Source of the DNA: Novakomyces olei
Taxonomy: Eukaryota
Assembly (NCBI GenBank): GCA_016906335.1
Contig: JADEYG010000004.1
Location: 1,426,001-1,490,000 of the forward strand
Direction of reading: 5' to 3'
DNA length: 64,000 nt
The first letter of the stretch is position 1; each line of letters starts with the position of its first letter. The notes beneath the pieces were generated by a model. That model was given only the letters and a program-made list of their open reading frames with translations, was not told the DNA's origin and made no database searches. Shown here one piece after another: positions 716 to 58,136 of this stretch. A program made the position numbers and the translations under genes.

Positions 716-717
<2 letters not shown>

Positions 718-1130
718 ATTCTTGGGTCGCCGGTTCCGATTCCGATGGCGGGGCCTCACTCTCAACGGGCTCCTCCACCTCGTGCTCCTCCTCAAGCTTA
801 TGCAGCATTTCGAACGCTCTCAAACGCGCATTCGCCGACACGAGCTCCTCTTGAGCCGATTTCAAGGCCGCGCGCAATTCCAACACATACTGCGTAATCG
901 CCTCTAGGGGGTCCTCTCGACCGCGCTTAACCCCGCGGGCCCCCCCACAAGCGTTGCTGCATGTCACTAAGCTCGAACGGGTACTCGCCGTCACACGGCT
1001 TTCCCGCATTCGCACAACGCAAACACTTTGGCTTTTGGCGACCCGTTCGACGCACCCACACACAATCGTGGGGTTTGCCAAACGCAGTACACCTCGAGCA
1101 CGGACCAGCAACACTTCTCTTCTGCTCTTC
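716..1130 (-). CDS. Antisense accessory gene of E1: Zn2Cys6-like cluster plus coiled coil and acidic tail (1-nt frameshift at the C7 run 940-946; start not resolved)
   Basis: Frame 1130->927 reads PCSRCTAFGKPHDCVWVRRTGRQKPKCLRCANAGKPCDG (not in the ORF track). Removing one G joins it to REDPLEAITQYVLELRAALKSAQEELVSANARL...EPATQE*. Confidence 0.7.
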
Positions 1131-1236
1131 CTATGGATGGATCAAATTTTTTCTCTCACCCTCCTTTTATTCAGTATTTGTCGCTACATTACTTATTTGC
1201 CCTCACAGGAGTTCGCGCCTCCGAGGGGGGGTATCG

Positions 1237-1722
1237 TGTAATGAACCACTTAGGGTTAGTTAGGGTTAGGGTTATAAATATAGTTTAGGGTTATGGTTAG
1301 GGTTTACCCCACCTAGGATCCCTACCTAGGATCCCTTCCTAGGATCCTTACCTAGGATCCCTACCTAGGATCCCTTCCTAGGATCCCTTCCTAGGATCCC
1401 TTCCTAGGATCCCCTCTTCATTACTTACCTTTTTCCCCTCTTTTATTTCGTCTATACACTTCCGCGCGTTTATTTACTTTGCGCTATTTATTTGTTTACT
1501 TCTTTCCGTTTCCGGCGCAGCCCCTTCGCAGCGTGCTGCGCCTTCCTCCTCCGTCCGTAGCTTATAAATAGCGCCGTGGTGAGCCCAGCTCCCCACGGGT
1601 TAATCTATTCTATTCAATTTCTCTATTTAATTTTCTAATATATTTTCTAATATATTTTCTTTTACTTTCAGACGCCTACGTTTCGCTTCGCCTTTCTTCC
1701 CTCCTTTCCCCCTTTCCTCACA
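1237..1722 (+). repeat. 3' LTR of E1, with TTAGGG-like motifs (1250-1305) and a ~14-bp CCTAGGATCCCT tandem array (1312-1413)
   Basis: TG...CA termini, PPT just upstream, TATAAATA at ~1563. Confidence 0.75.
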
Positions 1723-1837
1723 TCTTCGCATAAGTAAGCCATTTGACCATAGAGGTTCTCCAAGATTGGAATTCTCTGTGGGTCATAGAATGCCCATTCA
1801 GCTTTGCTGGTTCAGGCAGCTTGATTTTGAAATCCAT
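1723..1837 (-). pseudogene. B1 gag N-terminus, interrupted by E1
   Basis: MDFKIKLPEPAKLNGHSMTHREFQSWRTSMVKWLTYAK matches B2/B3 gag starts. Confidence 0.85.
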
Positions 1838-1881
1838 TTCTATTGAATGAAACCAATCGAACAGTGTTTTTAATTATTAAA

Positions 1882-2630
1882 CTAATAAAGAGTATTCAAA
1901 AATCCTGGTTGCTGTTTTCCGCTCTCCAAGTGTTTGTGATAATCTCTTTCAACTTTATCCGGATCTTCTCCTTTGTAAAGTCGAACCTTAAATTCGTCCT
2001 CCACAGTATTGTCCAGCAAGTATTTAGTTTTATTTCTTTTGTGTAGCTCTTGTATTCTGTCAGCTACCAATTTGTTGTAGGTCTCTTCGTACTTCAGCCT
2101 AGCTGCTGCCTTGCTCGTCCAATGAGCCTGCTTTCGGAAAATTTCTTCCTCGGTTATAGGCGTTCGAATGACTGGAGTTGGAGCCTGAGCCTCGACTAAG
2201 GCTGGTGGTGCGACGGCAATTGGCGTTGGAGCTTTGTTGACTTTGGGGGGCTTTGGAAAAGGTCGCAATGCCGCGTCAACAGCTCTCTGAAGTCCACTTT
2301 GTTTTCGCTCTTTGAATGCCTCCGATCGGCGAGCGTTTCTTTGTCTTCTCTTTGACAATTGTAAAGTCAAGTTGTCAGAAGATGTTGCAGGAGACGGTGT
2401 ACACTGATCGGTTGATCCAGATTCAGTGACGTAGTCCTCCACTACAGGAATATGATGTGGGCGGTCTTGTCCTGCCTGCACCTTGTTCCTGGGTGGATCT
2501 GTCTTTGCCTGACGCAAAAGATTTGCGCAAGGCTCAGAATAGATTCTCCTGTAAATCCGTCGGTTTTTTCCAGACGGTTGCACTGACGATGTTAGCAGTG
2601 AAAAAATATGTTAAGTGAGGATTACTCACT
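1882..2630 (-). CDS. B1 ORF0 (~233 aa, unknown function); ATG predicted from A2630 + TG 2582-2581 after removing intron 2583-2629
   Basis: Homologous to the ORFs at 4172-4882 and 6327-6998. Intron signals GTGAGT...GCTAAC...CAG. Confidence 0.78.
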
Positions 2631-3792: not shown

Positions 3793-4152
3793 TGTTAGGC
3801 CATAGTGTAGATAGTAAAATTAAAATTAAAAATGACATAATTAAATTAAATTAATTCACTCCAAATACGGAATCTAACCGATTTGGAGGAATATTTAATT
3901 ACTGATCATTAAATCAAGCCACTGATCGGGTATCTGTATCCTATCAATGATAAGGTGATTACTAATTGATCGGTTACTTCTGATCCTATCTGATTACTAA
4001 TTGATAGGAAAGTCTTAATCCTATCTCTTGGCAAATTACGAAGACAAGAGCTGAGCCTTGACGTCTATAAAAGGACAAGGTTTTCCATAGTTTAAGGGTA
4101 GATTTAATTAATCTAAAAGTTATAACAGTGAGTAATTTCCACAGTTATAACA
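3793..4152 (+). repeat. B2 5' LTR
   Basis: TGTTAGGCC...TTATAACA, TATAAAA 4066-4072, matches copies at 31040 and 31207-31531. Confidence 0.92.
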
Positions 4153-4882
4153 ACTTTTTTCACTGCTAACATTGTCAGTGAATCCGTCAGGAGACAGCCG
4201 ACGGCCTCGCATTGTCTACTCTGAGACATTTGCAAATCTCTTGAAGCAGGCAAAAACCGATCCAAAGGTTGTTGTCTCGGCTGGCTCTATCCGCCGAAGC
4301 AATACACCTAAGGATAAGGATAAAACCTCTGTGTCTGGACTTACCGACCAGAGTGCCCACTCAGAGAAAAATACCTCGATTCATCAATTGAATAAGAGGA
4401 AAGAAAGAAACGCTCGCCGATCGCAGGCATTCAAAGAGCGTAAACTCAACGGTCGAATTTCCAAGGGGCCTGAATCAATTGCTGCTATTGCGGCAAAGGT
4501 GCTCAGAAAACCTCCTCCACCAGCGCCGAGACTTGGTCCTTACCCAGCTCTTACAGCTCCTTCAGTTTCGCCGGCCACTATTTCTACTACAACTCCTCGT
4601 TTACCTCTATCAGCGGAAGAAGTTTTTCGAAAACAAGCGCACTGGACAAGCAAAGCGGCGGCCAATCTACGTTACGAGGAAACATACAACAAATTGGTGG
4701 CCAATCGCATTCAAGAGCTACACAATAGGAAGAAAACAAAATATCTTCTGGAGAACATCGTTGAGGACAGATTCAAAATTCGTCTCTACAGAGGAGAAGA
4801 TCCAAACAAAGTTGAGAAGGATTATTACGATCACTTGAAAAGTGGACAGCAATCACCAGCGTTTTCGAATACTTTGTATTAG
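4127..4882 (+). CDS. B2 ORF0 (~234 aa); ATG predicted from A4127 + TG 4179-4180 after removing intron 4128-4178
   Basis: ACA|GTGAGT...GCTAAC attgt CAG|TG AAT CCG; conserved in three copies. Confidence 0.78.
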
Positions 4883-5978: not shown

Positions 5979-6301
5979 TGTTAGGAGTGTAGATAATAAA
6001 TAATTAAACATTGAATTACTTAAAGGGTCCTAAACGTGTACGGATTAAAATTAAACATTGAATTACTTAAAGGGTCCTAAACGTGTACGGATTAAATCTG
6101 GAACCTCGGCATTTGATTAATAATTAATCACGCCATAGCGGAAGCTGACTCATGATTAGTCAAGGCTGACTCATAATTAATCACGCCATTTCGGGCTTTC
6201 GGACTACAGGAGTCTATAAAAAGGACACGGTTTCCCATAGTTTAGAACATAGTTTTTTCTATCTTTTAATTTATTTGTTACAACAGTGAGTTACCCTCAC
6301 A
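5979..6301 (+). repeat. B3 5' LTR
   Basis: TGTTAGGAG...CCCTCACA; lacks an 18-bp palindromic segment present in the 3' LTR. Confidence 0.92.
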
Positions 6302-6998
6302 CATTTTTTCACTGCTAACTAGGACAGTGACTCCCCCGTCTGGACAACGCCGACGGATTTACCCTCACGTTTTCTCTGAGCCTTTTGCAAATCTTTTGCG
6401 TCAGGCGAAAACTGATCCTCCTAAGGATAAGGTGTTGACTGGATATTGCCGTCAATACCCGGAGTCCAAGGAGCGAAAACAAAACTCTGAGTCTGGACCT
6501 GCCGACCAGAGTGTTCGACCCTCTTCCAGCTTGACTCTTCAGCTGTCGAAGAGAAGAGAAAGAAACGCTCGCCGTTCAGAGGCCTTCAAGGAGCGTAAGA
6601 GAATTGAAACGGTTTCTAAACCATTTGCAACACCTCGTCCGAAACCACTTCCAACCCCGATTCCGGCCCCGCTTCCGAAACCAGTTCCAGCACCAGTTCC
6701 AGCACCAGTTCCAAGATTACCGCTTACGGAGGAAGAAATATTTCGAAAAGAAGCTCATTGGACAAGCAAGGTTGCGGCTCAAATCAAATACGAGGACACC
6801 TACAATAATCTTGTGGCCAAAAGAATTCAGGAACTGAGCAGGAAGAAAAAAACTAAGTATTTGCTTGACAACATCGTTGAGGACGAATACAGAATCCGTC
6901 TTTTTAAAGGAGAGGATCCAGACAAAGTTGAAAAGGACTACTACGAACATTTGGAACAAGGACGACAAAAGCCAGCCTATCTTAATACGCTTTTTTAA
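6285..6998 (+). CDS. B3 ORF0 (~223 aa); ATG predicted from A6285 + TG 6328-6329 after removing intron 6286-6327
   Basis: ACA|GTGAGT...GCTAAC tagga CAG|TG ACT CCC. Confidence 0.75.
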   Translation, partial: SELPSHIFSLLTRTVTPPSGQRRRIYPHVFSEPFANLLRQAKTDPPKDKVLTGYCRQYPESKERKQNSESGPADQSVRPSSSLTLQLSKRRERNARRSEAFKERKRIETVSKPFATPRPKPLPTPIPAPLPKPVPAPVPAPVPRLPLTEEEIFRKEAHWTSKVAAQIKYEDTYNNLVAKRIQELSRKKKTKYLLDNIVEDEYRIRLFKGEDPDKVEKDYYEHLEQGRQKPAYLNTLF

Positions 6999-9326: not shown

Positions 9327-9957
9327 TGTAAGACGGTCCTTACAGCTACAATCGCTGGAGGCCGGCCGTGTATAGTTTAAATAAAGTAAAGGAATAAGAA
9401 AGACCAGGAAAGCAGAAAGCGATTACTGTAAAGCTTACCAGGAGTAATATAATGTATTACTCCCACTTTGAGATAATCAACCCGTGAAGGGCGAGAGGCC
9501 TTCACGGGCAACTATAAACTAAACTAAGTTGCGGAGGAGCGGATGCTCCTTCGCATTCTAAACTACTCTTCCCAAACTAACTTATGCGAAGGTCGCACAA
9601 GTTAGAGCGGGAAGCTCTCAACCTAAACTAGACTATGGAAATAACTATGAATGTTCTCGCGCTAGCGGAGTGCGAAGGGTCGCACTCGCTAGCGTGCGAG
9701 AATGAGAACGGGAAGCGAGGTCCGTGCACATTGTGCATGGAGCCCCTCGCTCCCGTGGGCCAAGCTGGCTTAGTGCGCGTACCTACATGCGCACTAAGAC
9801 AACTTCTACGTCCCAAGACCATCGCATTACGCGCCGACTGGTCTTGGGCCGCGTTGGCGAAGCTTGCGACGCGCGGACATCCCAAGTCCGACTACAGGCG
9901 TCGCCCCTCGCTTCCCAACGCGGTTGTCAGGAACTCGCCAAGGCGAGGATCATGACA
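9327..9957 (-). repeat. A 3' LTR
   Basis: TGTCATGATCC...CTTACA on the minus strand. Confidence 0.95.
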
Positions 9958-10534
9958 GTATCCCCCCTCCCTTGGGCGAGGTCCCCGCGCCCGCAAAACA
10001 TAAAATATCCCAAAACAATAGTAAGGCGAAAATAAAAACAACAGATTTCCCAGCTTTCAACATAATAAGGAACATTGCAACTCTTCCACAGTCTTGTCTC
10101 AATAAAATAGCATGGGTAAATCAAATCAATCAATAAATGTTCGCATTGCCCTGCGTAAGGAAAGAAAATTAAAATGCGAGCACGAACACATGTAGACCAT
10201 ACTGTCTTCCAATTGCAAACCAAGTCGTCTCCCTGGTCAGTGTTGTCGTATCTCCTCCGTATAACGTGTGTATGTCGTGCGATAGAATAAACAATAGTCG
10301 CGTTCAATTTGTCAACGCCGTAAATGATTAAAGCGGTGTTAGCTTCATCGTTTTCGATTTTAATAATTTTTTTTTGCATGATTTTCAAAAAAGTTTTTTC
10401 CAAATAGCGATAAATAACTAGTGCGAATTGTGTATTATATCGCAGTCGTAAACAAAAATCAAGAGTTGAGTCTCGCGATTGCGTAAGATTACGTGAGTTG
10501 AATGACGTAACCTGTATCGCGATTAACGTAAACA

Positions 10535-13500
10535 TCATAGCTTCGGCTTAGCCGGGTGTAATCTGTGAAATTCTTTCACTAAATCGTCGCAATTTGTCAA
10601 ATTGCCTGCCGGCTCCCAAGTGCGATTAGCACTATCGTATCCCTTCCAATGTACGAAATATTCCAATTTGTTTCTTCGCTTCCTTGAGTCCAACACTTCC
10701 TCTACCTCCCACTCTGGTGTATTCTCGATAATTATTGGTGGTGGTGGTGCTGTCTGCTGTCGCACAATCGTAGACGTAGACTTGTACGATTCCAATAAAG
10801 AAGCATGGAATACTGGATGTATTCTCATCGTGTTCGGTAAATCCAACTTGTATGCACGTAAACCGATACGTTTCAAGATTGTAAAGGGTCCAATCTTCTT
10901 GTAATCTAACTTGTCGCTTGGCCTAGTGGTACTGATGTTCTTTCTCACTAGCCATACTTTCTGACCGACTTCAAAATCCTTGTCGACACGGTGCGTATTA
11001 GCAAACCGTGCTTGATCGCTAATGGCATGTTTGATTTCAATCTGTAAAAGGCGATGTAGTGTTCGCAAGAAATCAATCCGATTGTCCGCCGATGGACATT
11101 GCCGTGCTGTTGCTATCGTAAAACGGCATTTGGGGTGATACCCATATAAAGCGTAACTAGGCGTCGCTTTTATTGATGATTGCTCAGTATTGTTATATGC
11201 GAACTGTGCAAAAGGTAGCAAGTTTACCCAATTCGTTTGTTGGTAATTGCTGTAAATTCTCAAATATTGCTCGAGGCTCTGATTAAGCCTTTCCGTTTGT
11301 CCATCGCTCTGGGGATGGTACGCAGTTGATAACCTTTGCTTGATATCACAATGTGCGAGTAAATGCTTCGTAAAATGTGATACGAAAACTGATCCACGAT
11401 CTGAGATAATTTCTTCTGGCAGTCCAAAGTTAGCAAATACTCTGTGAGCGTATAGCAATGCTAGTTCTTTCGCGCTCATGGTCTCGCATATTGGTACAAA
11501 GATGCCTATCTTCGTAAAGCGACATACTATAACCCAAATTGAGTCGTAGTCTTTGCCTGTGATGACATCTCTTGACACCGGGAGCTTCACAATGAAGTCC
11601 ATAGCAATGCTTTCCCAAGGCTTTGTAGGTACTCGCAACGAATGTAATAGACCGTAGGGAGCATGATGCGATGATTTACTTCGTGCGCAAGTGTCGCATG
11701 ACTCCACATAGTTAAATACGTCCTTTCGCATCCTTGGCCAGTAATAGTTCCTTGTCACAAGCTCTAGCGTCTTAGCCTGTCCGGGGTGACCTGAAGTCTG
11801 CGAATCATGACATTCTTGCATGATTGATAATCGCAAATCGTTGTCTCTGGGTATGTAAATCAAACCCGAGAACATTAAAAGACCTTCCTTGTCCATTGTA
11901 TAATTCTCCAAATGAGCAGCATCGGGCTTGCTCTTTAACTCCTCAATAATATTTTTGCAAATGCTGTCCTTCTCGTAGCATTTCTTAACATCCTGTGCTA
12001 GCGTTTTGTTGTCCTCAATCGCAAACACAAATTGCGATTTGTCCAAAAGCACCATTGTTCGTTCTGGCTTTTCCTCCTCTTCGCTGCTAACGTAATCGCT
12101 TCTTCGCGATAAGGAGTCAGCCTTGTGGTTAAACTTTCCCGCACGATACACGATCACAAAATCGTAAGACGCAAGTAACTGCGACCAGCGCATTTGCCGT
12201 CTATTCAGGACACGCGCGGTCCAAAAGTACACAAGATTGCGATGATCCGTGTATATCGTGGTTTTGTGAAGGGGACTCTCCAAGTATACCCTCCATTCCC
12301 GAAGACATACAACAATAGCTAATAGCTCCTTGTCGTGAATGTCGTAGTTCGTCTCTGCGCTTGTCATCTTGCGCGAGTAAAATGCGATTGGTCTCATGTC
12401 GCCGTTTTCATCCTTTTGCGAAAGGATCCCGCCTATCGCAAAATCTGAGGCGTCCGTTTCCAAGAAGCTCGGCTTTTGTGGATCGAAGTGCACAAGAATA
12501 GGTGCGCCTAAGAATGCATCCTTCAACGCATTGAATGACTCCCTGCATTCGTCGCTAAACACGAACTTTGTATCCTTCTTTAAAAGCCGGGTAAGAGGTG
12601 CCGTAATCTTGCTGTAGTTGGCGATGAATCTTCGGTAATAGTTCGCCAGTCCCAGGAACGACATAACCTCCTTAACATTCTTTGGCTCGGGCCATGTTTC
12701 AATCGATTTGACCTTCGTATTTTCCATCGACACACCTTTCGTTGAAATCACGAAGCCAAGAAACTCCGTTGTGTCGGTATGGAATTCGCATTTCTCCAAT
12801 TTGACAAATAAATTTGCCTTGCGAAGTCTCTCCAATACTCCGCGCACGTGCTCCACGTGTTCTTCCTCTGTATTTGAGTAAATCAGTATATGTCCAAGTA
12901 AACGACAACATATCGATCCAGGCAATCTCGCAAAGTGTCGTTGGCGAGTGCTTGAAACGAAGCCGGGGCATTCGTAAGCCCAAACGGCATGACTTGGTAC
13001 TCGTAGTGGCCGTACCTCGTACGAAAGGCCGTTTTCCATTCGTCGCCTTTTCGTATCCTAACCAAATTATATGCACCGCGAAGATCCAGTCGCGTAAAAA
13101 TAGTTGCTTGGCGAATGCGATCTAGAAGTTCGGATATAAGCGGTAATGCATATCTGTTTTTGACAGTGATTGCGTTCAGACCGCGATAGTCAACGCATAA
13201 TCTAAGCGATCCATCTTTCTTTTTGACAAATAAGATCGGCGCCCCCGCGGGCGACGACGACGGTCGTATAAAACCTTTAGCGAGGTTTTCCTTGATATAA
13301 TCTCTCAGCGTTTGCAATTCGCGTTCGGCGAGCGGGTAGATCGGACCAAAAGGCGGCTTTGCATTTTCGGCCAAGGGTATCGCATGATCCCAAGGTTGAT
13401 GTTTCGGCAAAACGTCCGCGTTCTTCTTCTCAAATAGGTCGCGATATCCCTCGTAGAACCCAGGCAATGTAACGCGAGGCTTGATATCTTGCTCGTCCGT

Positions 13501-15322: not shown

Positions 15323-15952
15323 TGTAAGACGGTCCTTACAGCTACAATCGCTGGAGGCCGGCCGTGTATAGTTTAAATAAAGTAAAGGAATAAGAAAGAC
15401 CAGGAAAGCAGAAAGCGATTACTGTAAAGCTTACCAGGAGTAATATAATGTATTACTCCCACTTTGAGATAATCAACCGTGAAGGGCGAGAGGCCTTCAC
15501 GGGCAACTATAAACTAAACTAAGTTGCGGAGGAGCGGATGCTCCTTCGCATTCTAAACTACTCTTCCCAAACTAACTTATGCGAAGGTCGCACAAGTTAG
15601 AGCGGGAAGCTCTCAACCTAAACTAGACTATGGAAATAACTATGAATGTTCTCGCGCTAGCGGAGTGCGAAGGGTCGCACTCGCTAGCGTGCGAGAATGA
15701 GAACGGGAAGCGAGGTCCGTGCACATTGTGCATGGAGCCCCTCGCTCCCGTGGGCCAAGCTGGCTTAGTGCGCGTACCTACATGCGCACTAAGACAACTT
15801 CTACGTCCCAAGACCATCGCATTACGCGCCGACTGGTCTTGGGCCGCGTTGGCGAAGCTTGCGACGCGCGGACATCCCAAGTCCGACTACAGGCGTCGCC
15901 CCTCGCTTCCCAACGCGGTTGTCAGGAACTCGCCAAGGCGAGGATCATGACA
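15323..15952 (-). repeat. A 5' LTR
   Basis: Matches 9327-9957 apart from a 1-nt indel seen by eye. Confidence 0.95.
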
Positions 15953-27952: not shown

Positions 27953-28408
27953 TTACGGACGAGCGGCACGGAGCGAAAGAATCTCGCGCTCCAACGCACG
28001 GTTGCGGCGCTCGAGGCGAGCGATAGTCGCATCGCGCTGGGCCAGCGCACTCGAAACCGAACCGACGATCGAATTTGTTGACGGAGGACCGTCATCGGCA
28101 ATTACATGCACCTCGAATGGTGCCTGACGTCTTTCCTCCTGCGCTCGCTGTCGCGCGCGACGTCTTTCGCGGCGACGCTGCAGCTCCTCGCGCTCTCTCA
28201 CACGCTGTTCTTCACGCGCGGCAACAAGGCGCTCGTTCTCCTCATTGTCATGAAGAAAACGGCCTCCTTCGCAACGGGTGCGACGTGCCGCGCAGACCAT
28301 ACAGCGACGCACAAACGGTGCAGTGCCGAGAACGAAGCGGCACGGCAAAGAGTTTGCCACGCAATACTCGCAGGGCACGATAGCATCTCTGACATGAACA
28401 AGCGACAT
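27953..28408 (-). CDS. Antisense accessory gene of C: Zn2Cys6-like cluster, Arg/Glu helix, C-terminal coiled coil (151 aa)
   Basis: CEYC-x6-C-x12-CMVC-x6-C; intact ORF; TATATAA upstream at ~28503-28509 (minus). Confidence 0.8.
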   Translation of the reverse strand: MSLVHVRDAIVPCEYCVANSLPCRFVLGTAPFVRRCMVCAARRTRCEGGRFLHDNEENERLVAAREEQRVREREELQRRRERRRARQRAQEERRQAPFEVHVIADDGPPSTNSIVGSVSSALAQRDATIARLERRNRALEREILSLRAARP

Positions 28409-41165: not shown

Positions 41166-43214
41166 ATGGCCAGAAGTATCAATGCACGCGGGCAGCATCG
41201 AAAAGTTAAAGGTCAGAATCAGAAGAATGCACTTGATCAGACGACAATTCGTGTAACTCAGCGGCCCCCACTGTCCTGCACCGAGTGTTCGCGCAGACGA
41301 ATCAAGTGCGACCGGAAGCTTCCTTGCTACAATTGTATTGTTAGGGGACAAAAAGACTCGTGCCAACGTGAGAAGGTCTTGGTTAAGGGTAGATTAATAG
41401 AGTACTATCGCTTGAGCTGATCGACTGTTTTGCTGACATTACGCTAGGGCTGCCGAAAAGGAACATGCTGGCACACTACCTGATGAGATATCTGCTATTC
41501 GCGCTCTTATTAGCTCGGAACACCGCTCCATTAATGCAGCTTGGAACCGAATCCGCGATATGGAAGAGAAAATTTCTATCCTGCGGTCTGGACATAATGA
41601 AGAATCTCTATCCAGTTCGTTCTGCTTTACTGAATTAATAACTTCAATGTTAAATCACTTCGTGTTCAATGTCGACGTCCATCCGACAATGCCATCAGTG
41701 AATGACATCATCGGAAAGCCTAATATTGTGTTGCACTTTTTAAATATTATGCCGGATAAACAAAATTGTCTTCGTCTTGTTGATGCAAACATTTCACAAC
41801 TTGCATGGAAGCATGCCGCCTTTATCGGCCCAATTTTTGAAGAGGAAGAAAAAGTTTTCTGGCAGCATGTACAGCAGGGAAACTACGATATTGATATTCA
41901 ATGGCTGGCGCTTTATCTTGCTGTATTGAGCGTAAGACTTTCTTAGTTTTCGCAGAAGTCGTAATCTGTTTAGCTGACACAAGAATAGACTTCGGTGTTG
42001 TGGCTAGGCGAGGAATTCAATTACACTGTTGATGGTCGTTTGCAAATGGCAAATCGTTTGACTCAAGCCTCTTTAATGGCGCTATCAGCCGCAAACTTTA
42101 CTTGTAATCATAGCATTCGATCCGCACAAGCGGTTGCTGTTCTCGTTTTAAATGCTGCACATTTGGGCATATCAAATAAGCTGTGGGTAGCCCAGAGCGC
42201 CGTCACTGAAATTATGCGTTCTCGTGGCATAATGCAAATGCTTGAGAGTCCAAGAGATTATGTGCTTGAAATTCGAGTCTGGTGGGTTTTAATTCTTGGA
42301 CAATATATGGATCCGAATCTCTGTCAAAGCCATTATGCTTTCGACAGCAACCCCATTGTATATCCGTCTGTCCTTACTGATGAAGACTACATGGCTGGTA
42401 AAGCTGAACCACCACCTGGAAGCTTTTCTATGTATTATGCGGTGCGCCTTCTTACCTCGATAGGTCTGATTCATCACAAATTCAAGAGGAAAATGATCCG
42501 CGAGCCATATCAAATTCAGCGTCATGTTGAAGCGACCTTGAAAGATCTTCGCCAACTACATGCGGAAATGCCACATTATTTAAGGCGTGATCGGCCATTT
42601 CCAGCAAGCCTTTCTGATAAAGATATGGCCTGGCTGTCTTGGCAACGATTCGAACTTTCTTTAGAATTAAGTTGTGCCGCCCTTGAAGTCGGGCGTCACG
42701 TTCATGGCTTGTGGCTTCAAGACGGCGGAAGTATGGAGTCTCGAAAGTTTTGCGTAAATGCTGCATTGAAGGTCGTTGAGCTCAGAATTTCAGACGTACC
42801 TGCGCATTGGAAAAATGAATGGTAATACATTTCGCTCTATAAATAGGCTTCTATAATAGGCTAATTATTTGCAGGGCGCTAACATTACTATGTGCCTCTG
42901 CCGCCATTACTCTTGCTATCGACATTCTGGCAGGAACAGTAGGAGAGGTCGAGTGGCATAAAATAGACGCGATCAAAAGCCTGAAGGCTTCTATAATTAA
43001 TACCTCAAAGCAGTGTAATATGAGCGGGCAAATGGTTACATTATTGAGGCATCTAACCAATCTTGTCGATCGAAGAGTTCTTAACGAGGCTCGGAAGGAA
43101 GACTTATTACTTGAATTGCAATATATACTTAGCTCGTATATCCGAAAGACACCTGAATCCAATACTTTACTTCATCAAGCCTCGAGTATCGATGTTGTGC
43201 CATTTATTGAATAG
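41166..43214 (+). CDS. Zn2Cys6 transcription factor; introns ~41402-41447, 41932-41988, 42822-42874
   Basis: CTECSRRRIKCDRKLPCYNCIVRGQKDSC; middle-homology-like region; GT..CTRAY..AG introns. Confidence 0.85.
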
Positions 43215-53664: not shown

Positions 53665-55232
53665 CTAGATATATTCAAGACGGAATTATGGCGAAATTCC
53701 ATTTTTATGTAATGTGATTCTTATTATGTATAATTCTAGTCAGGGTTTTCGCTTTTCCTTTACGCCATAATTCCATTTCGAAAAATAATTAATGTATGAG
53801 GGGGGGGTCATGCCAATTTCCTTAGCATTCCCGCGAATTATGGCGTAATTCTAATAAGAATGGTAGGAGAAACGTGGAGGCAGGGTTTTTTAGGGAGAAT
53901 TTTCCGACTAAATTCCAAATTATAATATGGGAAATTGCGCGGGAATGCTAAGGAAATTGGCATAAACGGGGGTAAGAACGACGTAAGAGCAAAAATAGTT
54001 TCCGCCTTAATTCCAAAACATTGGCAAACCATATTGCGGCGAGGGTAGGGTTGCTGAATTTATAAAATAATTATACAAGATGGTCTACACATATTATAGC
54101 TATCTGATAATATAATAAAAATATTATAAAGAGAGCCCCATAGTAATAAAGTATAATAAGAAAAACGTGAGAAAAATATGAAAAATTAAGAGTGTGTAGT
54201 CCATGTGTAGAGGTGACAAAACGTCGAAAGAACAAGTGTTTTTACAAAAAGTGTATGGTTGGTTAGAGGGGAGCAGTAGGAGTGGAAATAAATATTTGTT
54301 TACAAGATTGGAATGGAAGTTATGGAGATATAAGGGTTTAAAGATTTATAAAAAGCTCATGACGGCGCAGGATGCATTTTATGTGGCATTATAGTAATGT
54401 ATAGTAGAATAATTTATTGTAAAGTAATGTATGTATAATAATGTATAGTATAATAATTTATTGTAAAGTAATGTATGTATAATAATGTATAGTATAATAA
54501 TGTATAGTATAATAATGTATGGTATTATAATGTATTGTAAAGTAATGTAATATATGGAGGAATAATGTATAGAGGAATAATGTATGTATAATAATGTATG
54601 GTATAATAATGTATTGTAAAGTATGTATAATAATGTATGGTATAATAATATATGGTAGAATAATGTATTGTAAAGTTATTGTAAAGTAATGTATGTATAA
54701 TAATGTATGGAGGAATAATGTATGTATAATAATGTGTGGTATAATAATATATGGTAAAATAATGTATTGTAAAGTAATGTATGTATAATAATGTATGGTA
54801 TAATAATATATGGTATTATAATGTATGGTATAATAACATATGGTATAATAATATATGGTATTATAATGTATGGTATAAGAATGTATGGTAATTTAATGTA
54901 TAGGAATAATGTATGTATAATAATGTATGGTATAATAATGTATGGAGGAATAATGTATGGATGAATAATGTATGGATGAATAATGTATAGAGGAATAATG
55001 TATGGTAAATTAATGTATGGGGATTAATGTATGGAGGAATAATGTATAGGGATAATGTATGGTGTTAATATATAGTATTAATGTATGGGGGCATAATGTA
55101 TGAGATTTGTTCAGTTAGGGTTAGGGTTAATTATTGGGATAATGTGTGGGGTATTATAATGTATGAGGAAGTTGTTTTATTAGGGTTAGGGTTATTTATC
55201 ATGGAGTGGAGTAGAGAAATTGGTTGAGATTG
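53665..55232 (-). mobile_element. Repeat element R copy 1 (hairpin-CTAG end, inverted repeats, AT-rich minisatellite); possibly a non-autonomous Helitron-like element
   Basis: Same CTAGATATATTCAAGAC... boundary at 53665, 56089, 63431; interrupted at 55233 by an A-type LTR. Confidence 0.65.
54390..55100. repeat. TATAATAATGTATGG-type minisatellite
   Basis: Direct observation; the plus strand is almost C-free. Confidence 0.92.
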
Positions 55233-55421
55233 TGTCATGATCCTCGCCTTGGCGAGTCCCTGACAACCGCGTTGGGAAGCGAGGGGCGACGCCTGTAGTC
55301 GGACTTGGGATGTCCGCGCGTCGCGAGCTTCGCCAACGCGGCCCAAGACCAGTCGGCGCGTAATGCGATGGTCTTGGGACGTAGAAGTTGTCTTAGTGTG
55401 CATGTAGGTACGCGCACTAAG
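55233..55421 (+). repeat. 5' part of an A-family LTR, interrupted by D2
   Basis: Near reverse complement of 9769-9957. Confidence 0.9.
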
Positions 55422-55824
55422 TGTTATGGTTGTAGAAGGCGAAAGCCTAAAGGAGAACCCAATTGCCGGATTTCACGCCGGCTCTGGGACTATGAGAAAA
55501 TTAAGAGATAGAACTGGGTTTAAAAGATTGGGTCTCCCCAAAGTTCGATTACACGTAGCGAGAAAAGTAGAAGCAGGACCTCTATTTATATCCTCGCTAC
55601 GTAGAATATTCTAGAAACACTAACTACTTAAACGATTAAACAAACTAACAAGTAAAAGCAGTCAGAATAATAATAGTCAATAAATAATAAATAATAAATA
55701 AATAAATATTAAATAAATATTAAATATTAAATAAAGACAACAAACAAATAATAAAATAGCGCTTCAATAGCGTCGGTGCTATCGAAGACGCAATAACACT
55801 ATATAAATAAATTAAATCATAACA
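55422..55824 (-). repeat. 3' LTR of element D2
   Basis: Inverted termini TGTTATG...CATAACA; PPT gggaggggagag upstream on the minus strand. Confidence 0.82.
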
Positions 55825-56088
55825 CTACTCTCCCCTCCCGAGGCGTAACACCTGTAAGCCTGAATAAATAAACTTCTTTTTCGCGTCGTAGTAAGCAGGA
55901 AGAGTGGCTCGATAAACTTCACTCGCTTCCTGGTGCTCGTTCTCAACTTGAAGTTCCAAATCTGTTCCCTTTGCATTCTCAGCATCCCACCCGGCTAGAC
56001 GCTTGAGACGCGAATGGGTGTATGCAAACGAGTACCCAGTGATGATAGAATTCTCGAGGGTCATTACAGCATGTAACGTCGCCGGTTC
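55825..56088 (-). pseudogene. C-terminal part of a second JmjC-like cargo gene (D2), interrupted by R2
   Basis: EPATLHAVMTLENSIITGYSFA...RLAGWDA...RGE* aligns with D1 PPGTLHGVIAITDSALMGYNFA...RLIEWDA...RGE*. Confidence 0.78.
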
Positions 56089-58136
56089 CTAGATATATTC
56101 AAGACGGAATTATGGCGAAATTCCATTTTTATGTAATGTGATTCTTATTATGTATAATTCTAGTCAGGGTTTTCGCTTTTCCTTTACGCCATAATTCCAT
56201 TTCGAAAAATAATTAATGTATGAGGGGGGGGTCATGCCAATTTCCTTAGCATTCCCGCGAATTATGGCGTAATTCTAATAAGAATGGTAGGAGAAACGTG
56301 GAGGCAGGGTTTTTTAGGGAGAATTTTCCGACTAAATTCCAAATTATAATATGGGAAATTGCGCGGGAATGCTAAGGAAATTGGCATAAACGGGGGTAAG
56401 AACGACGTAAGAGCAAAAATAGTTTCCGCCTTAATTCCAAAACATTGGCAAACGATATTGCGGCGAGGGTAGGGTTGCTGAATTTATAAAATATAATTAT
56501 TATACAAGATGGTCTACACATATTATAGCTATCTGATAATATAATAAAAATATTATAGAGAGAGCCCCATAGTAATAAAGTATAATAAGAAAAACGTCAG
56601 AAAAATAAGAAAAATTAAGAGTGTGTAGTCCATGTGTAGAGGTGACAAAACGTCGAATGAACAAGTGTTTTTACAAAAAGTGTATGGTTGGATAGAGGGG
56701 TGCAGTAGGAGTGTAAATATATACTTGTTTACAAGATTGGATTAGTAATTATGGAGATATATGGGTTTAAAGATTTATAAAAAGCTCATGACGGCGCAGG
56801 ATGCATTTTATGTGGCATTATAATAATGTATAGTAGAATAATTTATTGTAAAGCAATGTATGTATAATAATGTATAGTATAATAATGTATGGTAATTTAA
56901 TGTATAGGAATAATGTATGTATAATAATGTATGGTATAATAATGTATGGTATAATAATATATGGTAGAATAATGTATTGTAAAGTTATTGTAAAGTAATG
57001 TATGTATAATAATGTATGGAGGAATAATGTATGGAGGAATAATGTATGTATAATAATGTGTGGTATAATAATATATGGTAAAATAATGTATTGTAAAGTG
57101 AATAATGTATGTATAATAATGTATGGTATAATAATGTATTGTAAAGTAAAGTATGTATAATAATGTATGGTAAATAATATATGGTAGAATAATGTATTGT
57201 AAAGTTATTGTAAAGTAATGTATGTATAATAATATATGGTAGAATCATATGGTATAATAATATATGGCATTATAATGTATGGTATAATAATATATGGTGG
57301 AATAATGTATGGAGGAATAATGTATGTATAATAATGTATGGTATAATAATATATGGGGGATTAATGTATGGGAATAATGTATGGGGAATTAATGTATGGG
57401 GGATTAATGTATGGAGAATAATGTGTATGGGGGAATAATGTATGGGGGAATAATGTACGGTGATATTTATTTAGGGTTAGGGTTATTTATGATCGAATGG
57501 AGTAGAGAATTATATTGAGATTGTTGGATATGAAAGGGAGGGAGAGAGTTGGAGTTGAGATAGGAAGTAAAGGGAAATAGAAAATGGGAATAGAGTAATG
57601 TAGAAGTTGCCAAAAAAATGTTTGATAAAGGACAGTTATTGAAAGGAAGATTGTTTTAATATTATTTAGTATTTTATAATATTTGGTTAAAGTTTAGAAA
57701 GGATCAAATAAAAATGATGATGTAAAAGTTTTAAAAGGGCGGAAAATGTGAATAATAATAGATTGAAGGGGTGTGAGGGGATGTGGAAAAGTGATGGGAG
57801 ATGAAGAAAGAAAGATTTTGGAAGAGTTGAGGGAAGCAGATGGAAGTTGATGGAGTTAGGAGGTAGGGCTATGGTTAAAGTGAGAAGAATTAGGGTTATT
57901 TAGTTCTAAGTGTATGAATGTTAGGGTTAGTAATTTATTATAAGAGAATGATAGCATGTTGGGGGAAGAAGTTTATAAAATAGAGAATGGTAATGGGGGT
58001 TAGGGTTATGGAGGAATAATGTTTGGTAAAATGATGTATGGGATTAATGTATGGGGGAATAATGTATGTAGGAATATATATGGTATAAATATAAGTATTT
58101 ATTAAGCATGGAGACTAATATAAATATATTCAAAAA
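56089..58136 (-). mobile_element. Repeat element R copy 2 (minisatellite ~56820-57460), followed by a diverged R terminus at 58137-58192
   Basis: First ~750 bp nearly identical to R1. Confidence 0.65.

Follow-up and report, generated by a model that had tools for sequence, protein, structure and literature searches.

LTR retrotransposons are usually thought to depend on host factors for their transcription. The fungal retrotransposon gene brtn sits between pol and the 3′ LTR, and the title cited for Zhao et al. 2011 (Virology 417:248) reportedly gives it as antisense. In the passages that deal with it, brtn is described as an additional antisense gene of the Boty-like (BcGypsy1) Ty3/gypsy elements of Botrytis cinerea (PMC8365987, PMC4227169, PMC5987419), and one of these papers treats it as an additional ORF of BcGypsy1 that is absent from the B05.10 annotation (PMC8365987). 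The citing passages of the same three papers do not state which domains BRTN contains. For plants, a review (PMC7264820) covers Ty3/gypsy elements with an additional ORF placed antisense between pol and the 3′ LTR; in its main text, the word "zinc" occurs zero times. Outside the retrotransposons, a class II transposon of Zymoseptoria codes for proteins with the domain DUF3716, according to the passage of PMC8232023 that concerns them. Our literature search returned no paper joining an antisense gene of a fungal chromovirus to a zinc cluster.

Transcription factors of the Gal4 type are built in the order cluster, linker, dimerisation coil and acidic activation region, and they touch DNA via basic residues of the first loop of the cluster. 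The consensus spacing of the Zn2Cys6 domain is C-x2-C-x6-C-x5-12-C-x2-C-x6-8-C, and the linker of Gal4 has about 9 residues.

Here, we analyse an additional antisense gene in a Ty3/gypsy chromovirus, E1, inside which the window (the whole 64-kb stretch of DNA that was analysed) begins. We favour, with moderate confidence, the reading that the gene in the window is a pseudogenised copy of an additional chromovirus gene whose intact form would be an element-encoded dimeric zinc-cluster regulator.

Results

Layout of element E1

The first 417 bases of the window (plus strand) are the 3′ end of E1 pol, which encodes the C-terminal SH3-like part of the integrase and a chromodomain (Pfam SH3_Tf2-1, E 6.6e-22; Chromo, E 6.3e-17) and stops at 415-417. 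The antisense gene lies at 716-1133 on the minus strand, and the polypurine tract GAGGGGGGG follows at 1223-1231 (plus strand), so that the gene occupies the slot between chromodomain and polypurine tract to which the preliminary description had assigned it. A spacer (418-715) extends from the pol stop to the antisense stop and contains 2.9 copies of TAGGGTTATT (622-651) as well as a run of 32 A (681-712); it may serve the antisense gene as a terminator or 3′ untranslated region. The A32 run directly adjoins the antisense stop, reading as T32 on the gene strand, and contigs break there. On the other side of the gene, the stretch from the gene to the polypurine tract (1134-1222, minus strand) is, judging from its position, a candidate 5′ UTR or promoter.

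The 3′ LTR of E1 (1237-1728, plus strand; ends inferred from sequence reading) begins with TGTAATGAACC and finishes with ..TTCGCA, its end (~1728) being set at the point from which minus-strand gag sequence of a low-GC element continues. It contains TTAGGG-like repeats (1250-1306), a 13-bp array (1307-1413) and TATAAATAG (1563-1571), upstream of which lies the inverted repeat GGCGCAGC/GCTGCGCC. The array, situated in the U3 part of the LTR, consists of 8.2 copies of CCCTACCTAGGAT with 93% matches and holds the overlapping palindromes CCTAGG and GGATCC. Its length varies, since one contig jumps 118 bases here (1227 to 1346) and the contig depth at 1307-1413 is 10-25x that of the internal region. 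This array is a candidate enhancer or binding-site array.

Several further repeats and junctions were observed. Telomere-like TTAGGG repeats stand on both sides of the antisense cassette, in the spacer (622-651) and at the LTR start (1250-1306), and they occur again in the G-skewed 54-58 kb region (55115-55191, 57471-57482 and 58000-58011); within that region, large arrays with a period of 15 bp (54376-57421) lie where the GC content is low (0.31-0.33) and the GC skew very strong (0.36-0.62). With at most one mismatch allowed, TTAGGGTTAGGG occurs 7 times, compared with an expectation of 0.09. At 1718-1873 (minus strand), the 3′ LTR of E1 adjoins a truncated gag from the low-GC family (MDFKIKLPEPAKLNGHSMTHREFQSWR...), which indicates that E1 is nested in, or cut against, another element.

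A rare six-cysteine motif on the antisense strand

On the minus strand, the pattern CSRC-x8-C-x12-CLRC-x6-C is found at 1100-993, exactly as described earlier, inside a frame of 67 residues from stop to stop (927-1130) that comprises the N-terminus and the basic Cys6 domain. This first frame ends at the TAA at 929-927, and the coiled-coil and acidic part lies in an overlapping frame (716-1141), such that the second portion of the gene (716-926, minus strand) encodes a linker, a five-heptad zipper and an acidic tail before the TAG stop at 718-716.

To a relaxed expression of the motif (C-x2-C-x5-10-C-x4-16-C-x2-C-x5-10-C, uninterrupted by stops), the six frames of the 64-kb window yielded three matches, compared with a mean expectation of 0.005 in 200 Markov simulations of the window and of 0.01 in 200 simulations of 64 kb at local composition. 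One match (41277-41363) belongs to an ordinary host Zn_clus gene (Pfam E 1.6e-6, 28.6 bits, above the cut-off). The two non-host matches, one in E1 and the other in a second element of the window, element C (28271-28372), are both antisense between the chromodomain and the polypurine tract. The antisense Cys6 frame is a real element-borne gene and not a chance frame.

Two lesions in the window copy and intact copies elsewhere

In the window, a four-base step at a G7 run (940-946, minus strand; C7 on the plus strand) fuses both frames into 137 residues. The copy has no ATG, and an in-frame TAG occupies 1133-1131, the site of the start codon in intact copies. An intron instead of a frameshift was considered and rejected: the sole nearby GT..AG pair (966-926) encloses 41 bases and runs into a stop.

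Contigs of four public DNA runs (X1 to X4) were compared with positions 300-1400. The stretch is present in two of them, X1 and X2, which bear different organism labels, and no contig over 300-1400 was found in X3 and X4. Position 940 is one base short in one contig of X1 (depth 1065.2 of 1981.1) and in the single X2 contig at this site (6.61 of 6.61), as the repair that the preliminary description had proposed for the G7 run requires. The G7 version of the window is carried by another X1 contig (depth 915.9) and is therefore a real variant, not just an assembly slip. In both X1 and X2, letters inserted behind 1131 and 1133, together with A>T at 1133, produce a minus-strand ATG directly before GAA GAG. 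When the listed differences were applied by script, the X1 and X2 variants each gave an uninterrupted ORF of 138 residues (MEEQK...PATQE) with the Cys6 motif at residues 12-47. As far as the collapsed contigs show, all six cysteines are unchanged in these other copies, the point on which the earlier proposal could have failed, and over 964-1108, which spans the entire Cys6 domain, neither the X1 nor the X2 contigs differ from the window by a single base.

The window copy is thus a pseudogene with two lesions, and it cannot make the protein because its start codon is lost and an extra G, one base more than in the intact copies, shifts the frame. In run X2, the pol-end contigs (300-649) are identical to the window; the antisense-gene contig (722-1221), twice as deep, departs from it by 15 bases and 4 indels. 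The contrast may stem from different copies or from subfamilies that have recombined.

A second antisense gene in element C

Element C is full-length, with identical LTRs, and harbors an intact antisense gene (27956-28408, minus strand) encoding 151 residues with a Cys6 motif of the form C-x2-C-x6-C-x12-C-x2-C-x6-C (28271-28372) and a coiled coil. It shares with E1 the slot, the orientation, the six cysteines, the 12-residue central loop and the coiled coil that follows, and the correspondence of slot, orientation and loop asserted in the preliminary description thus stands in all three respects. However, the first loop is x8 in E1 and x6 in element C, the E1 protein ends in an acidic tail whereas that of element C has a second helical segment, and the gene of element C is intact whereas the E1 copy in the window is broken.

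The integrase end of E1 is 53% identical to that of element C, 58% to that of a minus-strand element (10535-10960) and 32% to that of the low-GC family; at 53% identity, E1 and element C belong to one clade. A blastn search of 418-1700 against the window returned only the query itself, and the LTRs of E1 and element C are unrelated at that level, as had been claimed. Both LTRs begin TGT.ATGA.CC after a G-rich polypurine tract, which in element C is AAGGGGGGA, followed by TGTCATGA at the opening of the 3′ LTR. The counterpart of E1 1134-1222 in element C contains TATATAAG.

The two antisense proteins are 26-27% identical over ~60 residues (BLASTP E 0.001-0.002, for this single pair). With the cysteines held fixed, their Cys6 domains align with a score of 4, compared with -28.6 +/- 12 in 20,000 shuffles (P 0.007). 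The alignment contains 15 invariant columns, 9 of them non-cysteine, and the non-cysteine residues in common include P10, A16, P20, V26, T29, A40 and G48, which lends modest support to homology of the Cys6 domains beyond the cysteines. The most economical interpretation is that the gene was inherited vertically in a single chromovirus clade and that the accessory protein has evolved far faster than pol.

The clade has a third representative, the minus-strand element whose integrase end is 58% identical to that of E1 (pol end at 10535); it is young, its LTR pieces (9482-9781 and 15477-15776) being identical. The AT-rich slot of ~600 bases between its pol and LTR (9930-10535) contains no six-cysteine ORF on the opposite strand; the antisense gene has been lost or replaced there, and it is therefore not kept everywhere. 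The low-GC retrotransposon family possesses a conserved ORF of ~240 residues just upstream of gag, with copies at 1882-2610 (minus strand), 4151-4882 (plus strand) and 6270-6998 (plus strand) and the motif FRKQAHWTSKAAA..YEETYNKLVA.RIQEL, which seems to represent a different type of additional ORF, in sense orientation.

Parts of the protein and the Zn2Cys6 question

The intact E1 protein is encoded by a single exon of 138 codons that is read from the 3′ LTR side toward pol. Its Cys6 core of 36 residues is basic (9 K/R, 1 D/E) and is followed by a linker of ~28 residues, a zipper of five heptads (a = L,V,L,L,L; d = I,L,A,A,F) and an acidic tail, the last 25 residues containing 11 D/E and 0 K/R. 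The coiled coil and acidic tail expected behind the frameshift are accordingly both present. The heptad register scores 9 of 13, and other registers reach at most 5.5. For the zipper part, Pfam reports weak coiled-coil families (DUF7518, E 0.0031; PspA, E 0.012; FliJ, E 0.016), and a complex prediction of the zipper homodimer gave a score of 0.04 against a mark of 0.32. From its sequence, the zipper is predicted to be a dimerisation element C-terminal to the Cys6 domain.

The cysteine spacing of element C (x2, x6, x12, x2, x6) fits the Zn2Cys6 consensus in full; that of E1 (x2, x8, x12, x2, x6) exceeds it by two residues in the first loop and fits elsewhere, and only one of the 8 residues of this loop is basic. 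The Pfam model Zn_clus (PF00172), against which the preliminary description had recommended a check, matches E1 in two stretches at 16.8 bits (E 0.0077), under its cut-off of 21 bits and about level with the unrelated Cys-rich family PSI_Plexin-B (E 0.009). The protein of element C scores 10.5 bits (E 0.69) against the same model.

An AlphaFold model based on the alignment of E1 and element C (mean pLDDT 58.9) contains short helices at residues 12-16 and 37-42, each starting at a C-x2-C. Among 48,161 PDB representatives, four chains match this model at Z of at least 2, and all four are Zn2Cys6 proteins, namely PPR1 (1pyi_B; Z 2.6, rmsd 3.6, 51 aligned), Pho7 (6o19_A; Z 2.5), GAL4 (1aw6; Z 2.5) and LAC9 (1cld; Z 2.2, rmsd 1.8, 33 of 33 aligned). 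Zn2Cys6 proteins fill the first 7 places of the Foldseek list and account for 10 of its 19 displayed rows, with E values of at least 0.94. These model-based matches are weak, being specific but not significant, and AlphaFold may be echoing the cysteine pattern. When modelled from the single sequence, the E1 domain received a higher confidence (pLDDT 68.9) and folded into four strands in hairpins, without cluster-type helices.

It is conceivable, though unlikely, that the gene is real but that its Cys6 domain is another small zinc module, such as a zinc ribbon, a treble-clef-like fold or a distant relative of DUF3716 (Pfam PF12511), and that the protein acts not by activating transcription but by protein or RNA contacts, with a role, for instance, in targeting, in the control of copy number or against silencing. 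The hairpin model, the longer first loop with its single basic residue and the sub-threshold Zn_clus score would agree with such a module, as would a weak match of E1 to DUF3716 (E 0.75), a domain that is associated with transposons in the part of PMC8232023 concerned. However, the hairpin model has no convincing structural match (Foldseek E 2.1 at best; the highest Z, 2.5, falls on unrelated folds, and the TFIIS ribbon reaches only Z 2.1), and membership of DUF3716 is not supported, since the score of 10.2 bits lies below the cut-off of 22 bits and the protein of element C has no match to this family in Pfam. The two-fold C-x2-C-x6/8-C pattern with zipper and acidic tail is, moreover, the layout of the Gal4 type, and the joint model of E1 and element C matches Zn2Cys6 structures only. 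We regard the chance that the E1 domain is a true binuclear zinc cluster as slightly better than even. The Zn2Cys6 identity put forward in the preliminary description is weakly supported: it falls short at the Pfam cut-off and in the spacing of the first loop, and the two models differ in fold.

Searches for relatives and selection on the ORF

In the protein collection, 0 of 50 candidates scored for E1 read through with X, 0 of 944 for the protein of element C, and 0 of 138 for a profile of both that was applied to longer proteins. A phmmer search with the 67-residue piece of E1 gave no match at E 0.001 among 1.84 billion representative proteins, a sequence search of the PDB gave none at E 10, and the best values in the ESM Atlas (0.80 and 0.77) belong to unnamed clusters and lie under the lead level. 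Two candidates were dismissed as chance matches: a metagenome locus (L001; 44% over residues 23-55) that lies inside a bacterial permease gene and in another context, and a tblastn match within the window (51095-50913, E 0.012) that falls in a host ORF without the motif.

Substitutions in the ORF were compared with the same changes placed at random in it. The X2 variant has 13 substitutions, of which 8 are synonymous and 5 non-synonymous, versus 8.7 non-synonymous changes expected (P 0.029); the X1 variant also has 13, of which 7 are non-synonymous, versus 8.4 expected (P 0.29). The 16 distinct changes in X1 and X2 all lie outside the 36 Cys6 codons (P 0.005), and none creates a stop, as about 0.5-0.7 of random placements would. 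The selection signal is weak to modest for X2 and absent for X1, part of the compared branch belonging to the dead copy in the window.

The gene might instead be a mere passenger, a fragment of a host zinc-cluster factor, comprising its DNA-binding domain and dimerisation element, that was taken up by an ancestor of E1 and is decaying without any function for the element, but this is distinctly improbable. The two breaks in the window copy, the lack of relatives in the protein collections searched and the related element (pol end 10535) without a Cys6 ORF in the matching slot would suit a passenger. Against it stand the intact 138-codon copies in X1 and X2 and the absence of substitutions from the Cys6 codons (0 of 16). 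Furthermore, element C shows this slot, orientation and order of domains again although the integrase ends are only 53% identical, which implies that the gene has outlasted a long divergence of the elements. An ancient host origin would be compatible with the element-encoded regulator that we favour, so that only the claim of no function competes with it. That the locus is no gene at all, but a chance frame or non-coding antisense region with an accidental cysteine pattern, is barely credible: the missing start codon of the window copy, the failure to find database relatives and the few contigs on which the gene-level evidence rests point that way, but the motif is expected just 0.005-0.01 times per 64 kb, both of its non-host matches are antisense between chromodomain and polypurine tract, other copies have an ATG and an unbroken frame of 138 codons, and the heptad pattern is clean across five heptads.

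Discussion

If the gene does encode a dimeric zinc-cluster regulator, the intact E1 protein would bind two zinc ions via its six-cysteine domain and dimerise through the zipper, and the dimer would recognise DNA sites that occur in repeats, for example within the LTR of the element itself. The acidic tail would recruit the transcription machinery, and the E1 family would thus supply its own activator in trans. We infer the regulator function, and with it that the protein binds zinc, dimerises and binds DNA, as well as its target and the direction in which it regulates. A broader proposal, which is possible but rather doubtful, is that a whole clade of fungal chromoviruses has kept, while its integrase ends diverged to 53% identity and its LTRs became unrelated, a self-encoded miniature Gal4-like activator with zinc cluster, zipper and acidic tail, transcribed from an antisense promoter by the 3′ LTR and binding the repeat arrays of the family's own LTRs.

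Such a gene, if confirmed, would be to retrotransposons what the trans-activators are to retroviruses, and hosts could readily draw new transcription-factor genes from it. Were diverged element families to keep, in one and the same slot, a gene for a DNA-binding dimer that ends in an activation tail, the elements would bring part of their own regulation with them, and this could explain bursts of activity, family-specific escape from silencing and effects of one copy on others in trans. E1 would also exemplify fast protein evolution, the length of the first loop having changed and no sequence relatives being left. Genes of this kind are under-counted, because they are antisense, lie inside repeats and are missed by gene callers. 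The value of the dead E1 copy is that it provides a second, highly diverged member, in which the six cysteines, the 12-residue loop and the zipper are the features kept and the others drift.

Compared with Gal4-type factors (Gal4, Ppr1, Put3, Lac9 and Pho7), the E1 protein likewise has six cysteines in two C-x2-C-x6-8-C halves and a basic domain followed by a linker and then a predicted coiled-coil dimerisation element, and its acidic end resembles their activation region. However, its linker of ~28 residues is longer than that of Gal4, and the protein has only 138 residues, lacks a middle homology region and is encoded inside a retrotransposon. The extra ORFs of plant Ty3/gypsy elements that the review covers (PMC7264820) resemble the E1 gene in being additions to gag and pol, but they belong to plant hosts and encode unrelated proteins. 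By analogy of position and orientation, brtn appears to be the closest known gene: like the E1 gene, brtn is an addition to a fungal Ty3/gypsy element with a chromodomain and has escaped genome annotation (PMC8365987). We class the E1 gene as a new and highly diverged addition to the accessory genes that fungal chromoviruses carry in antisense.
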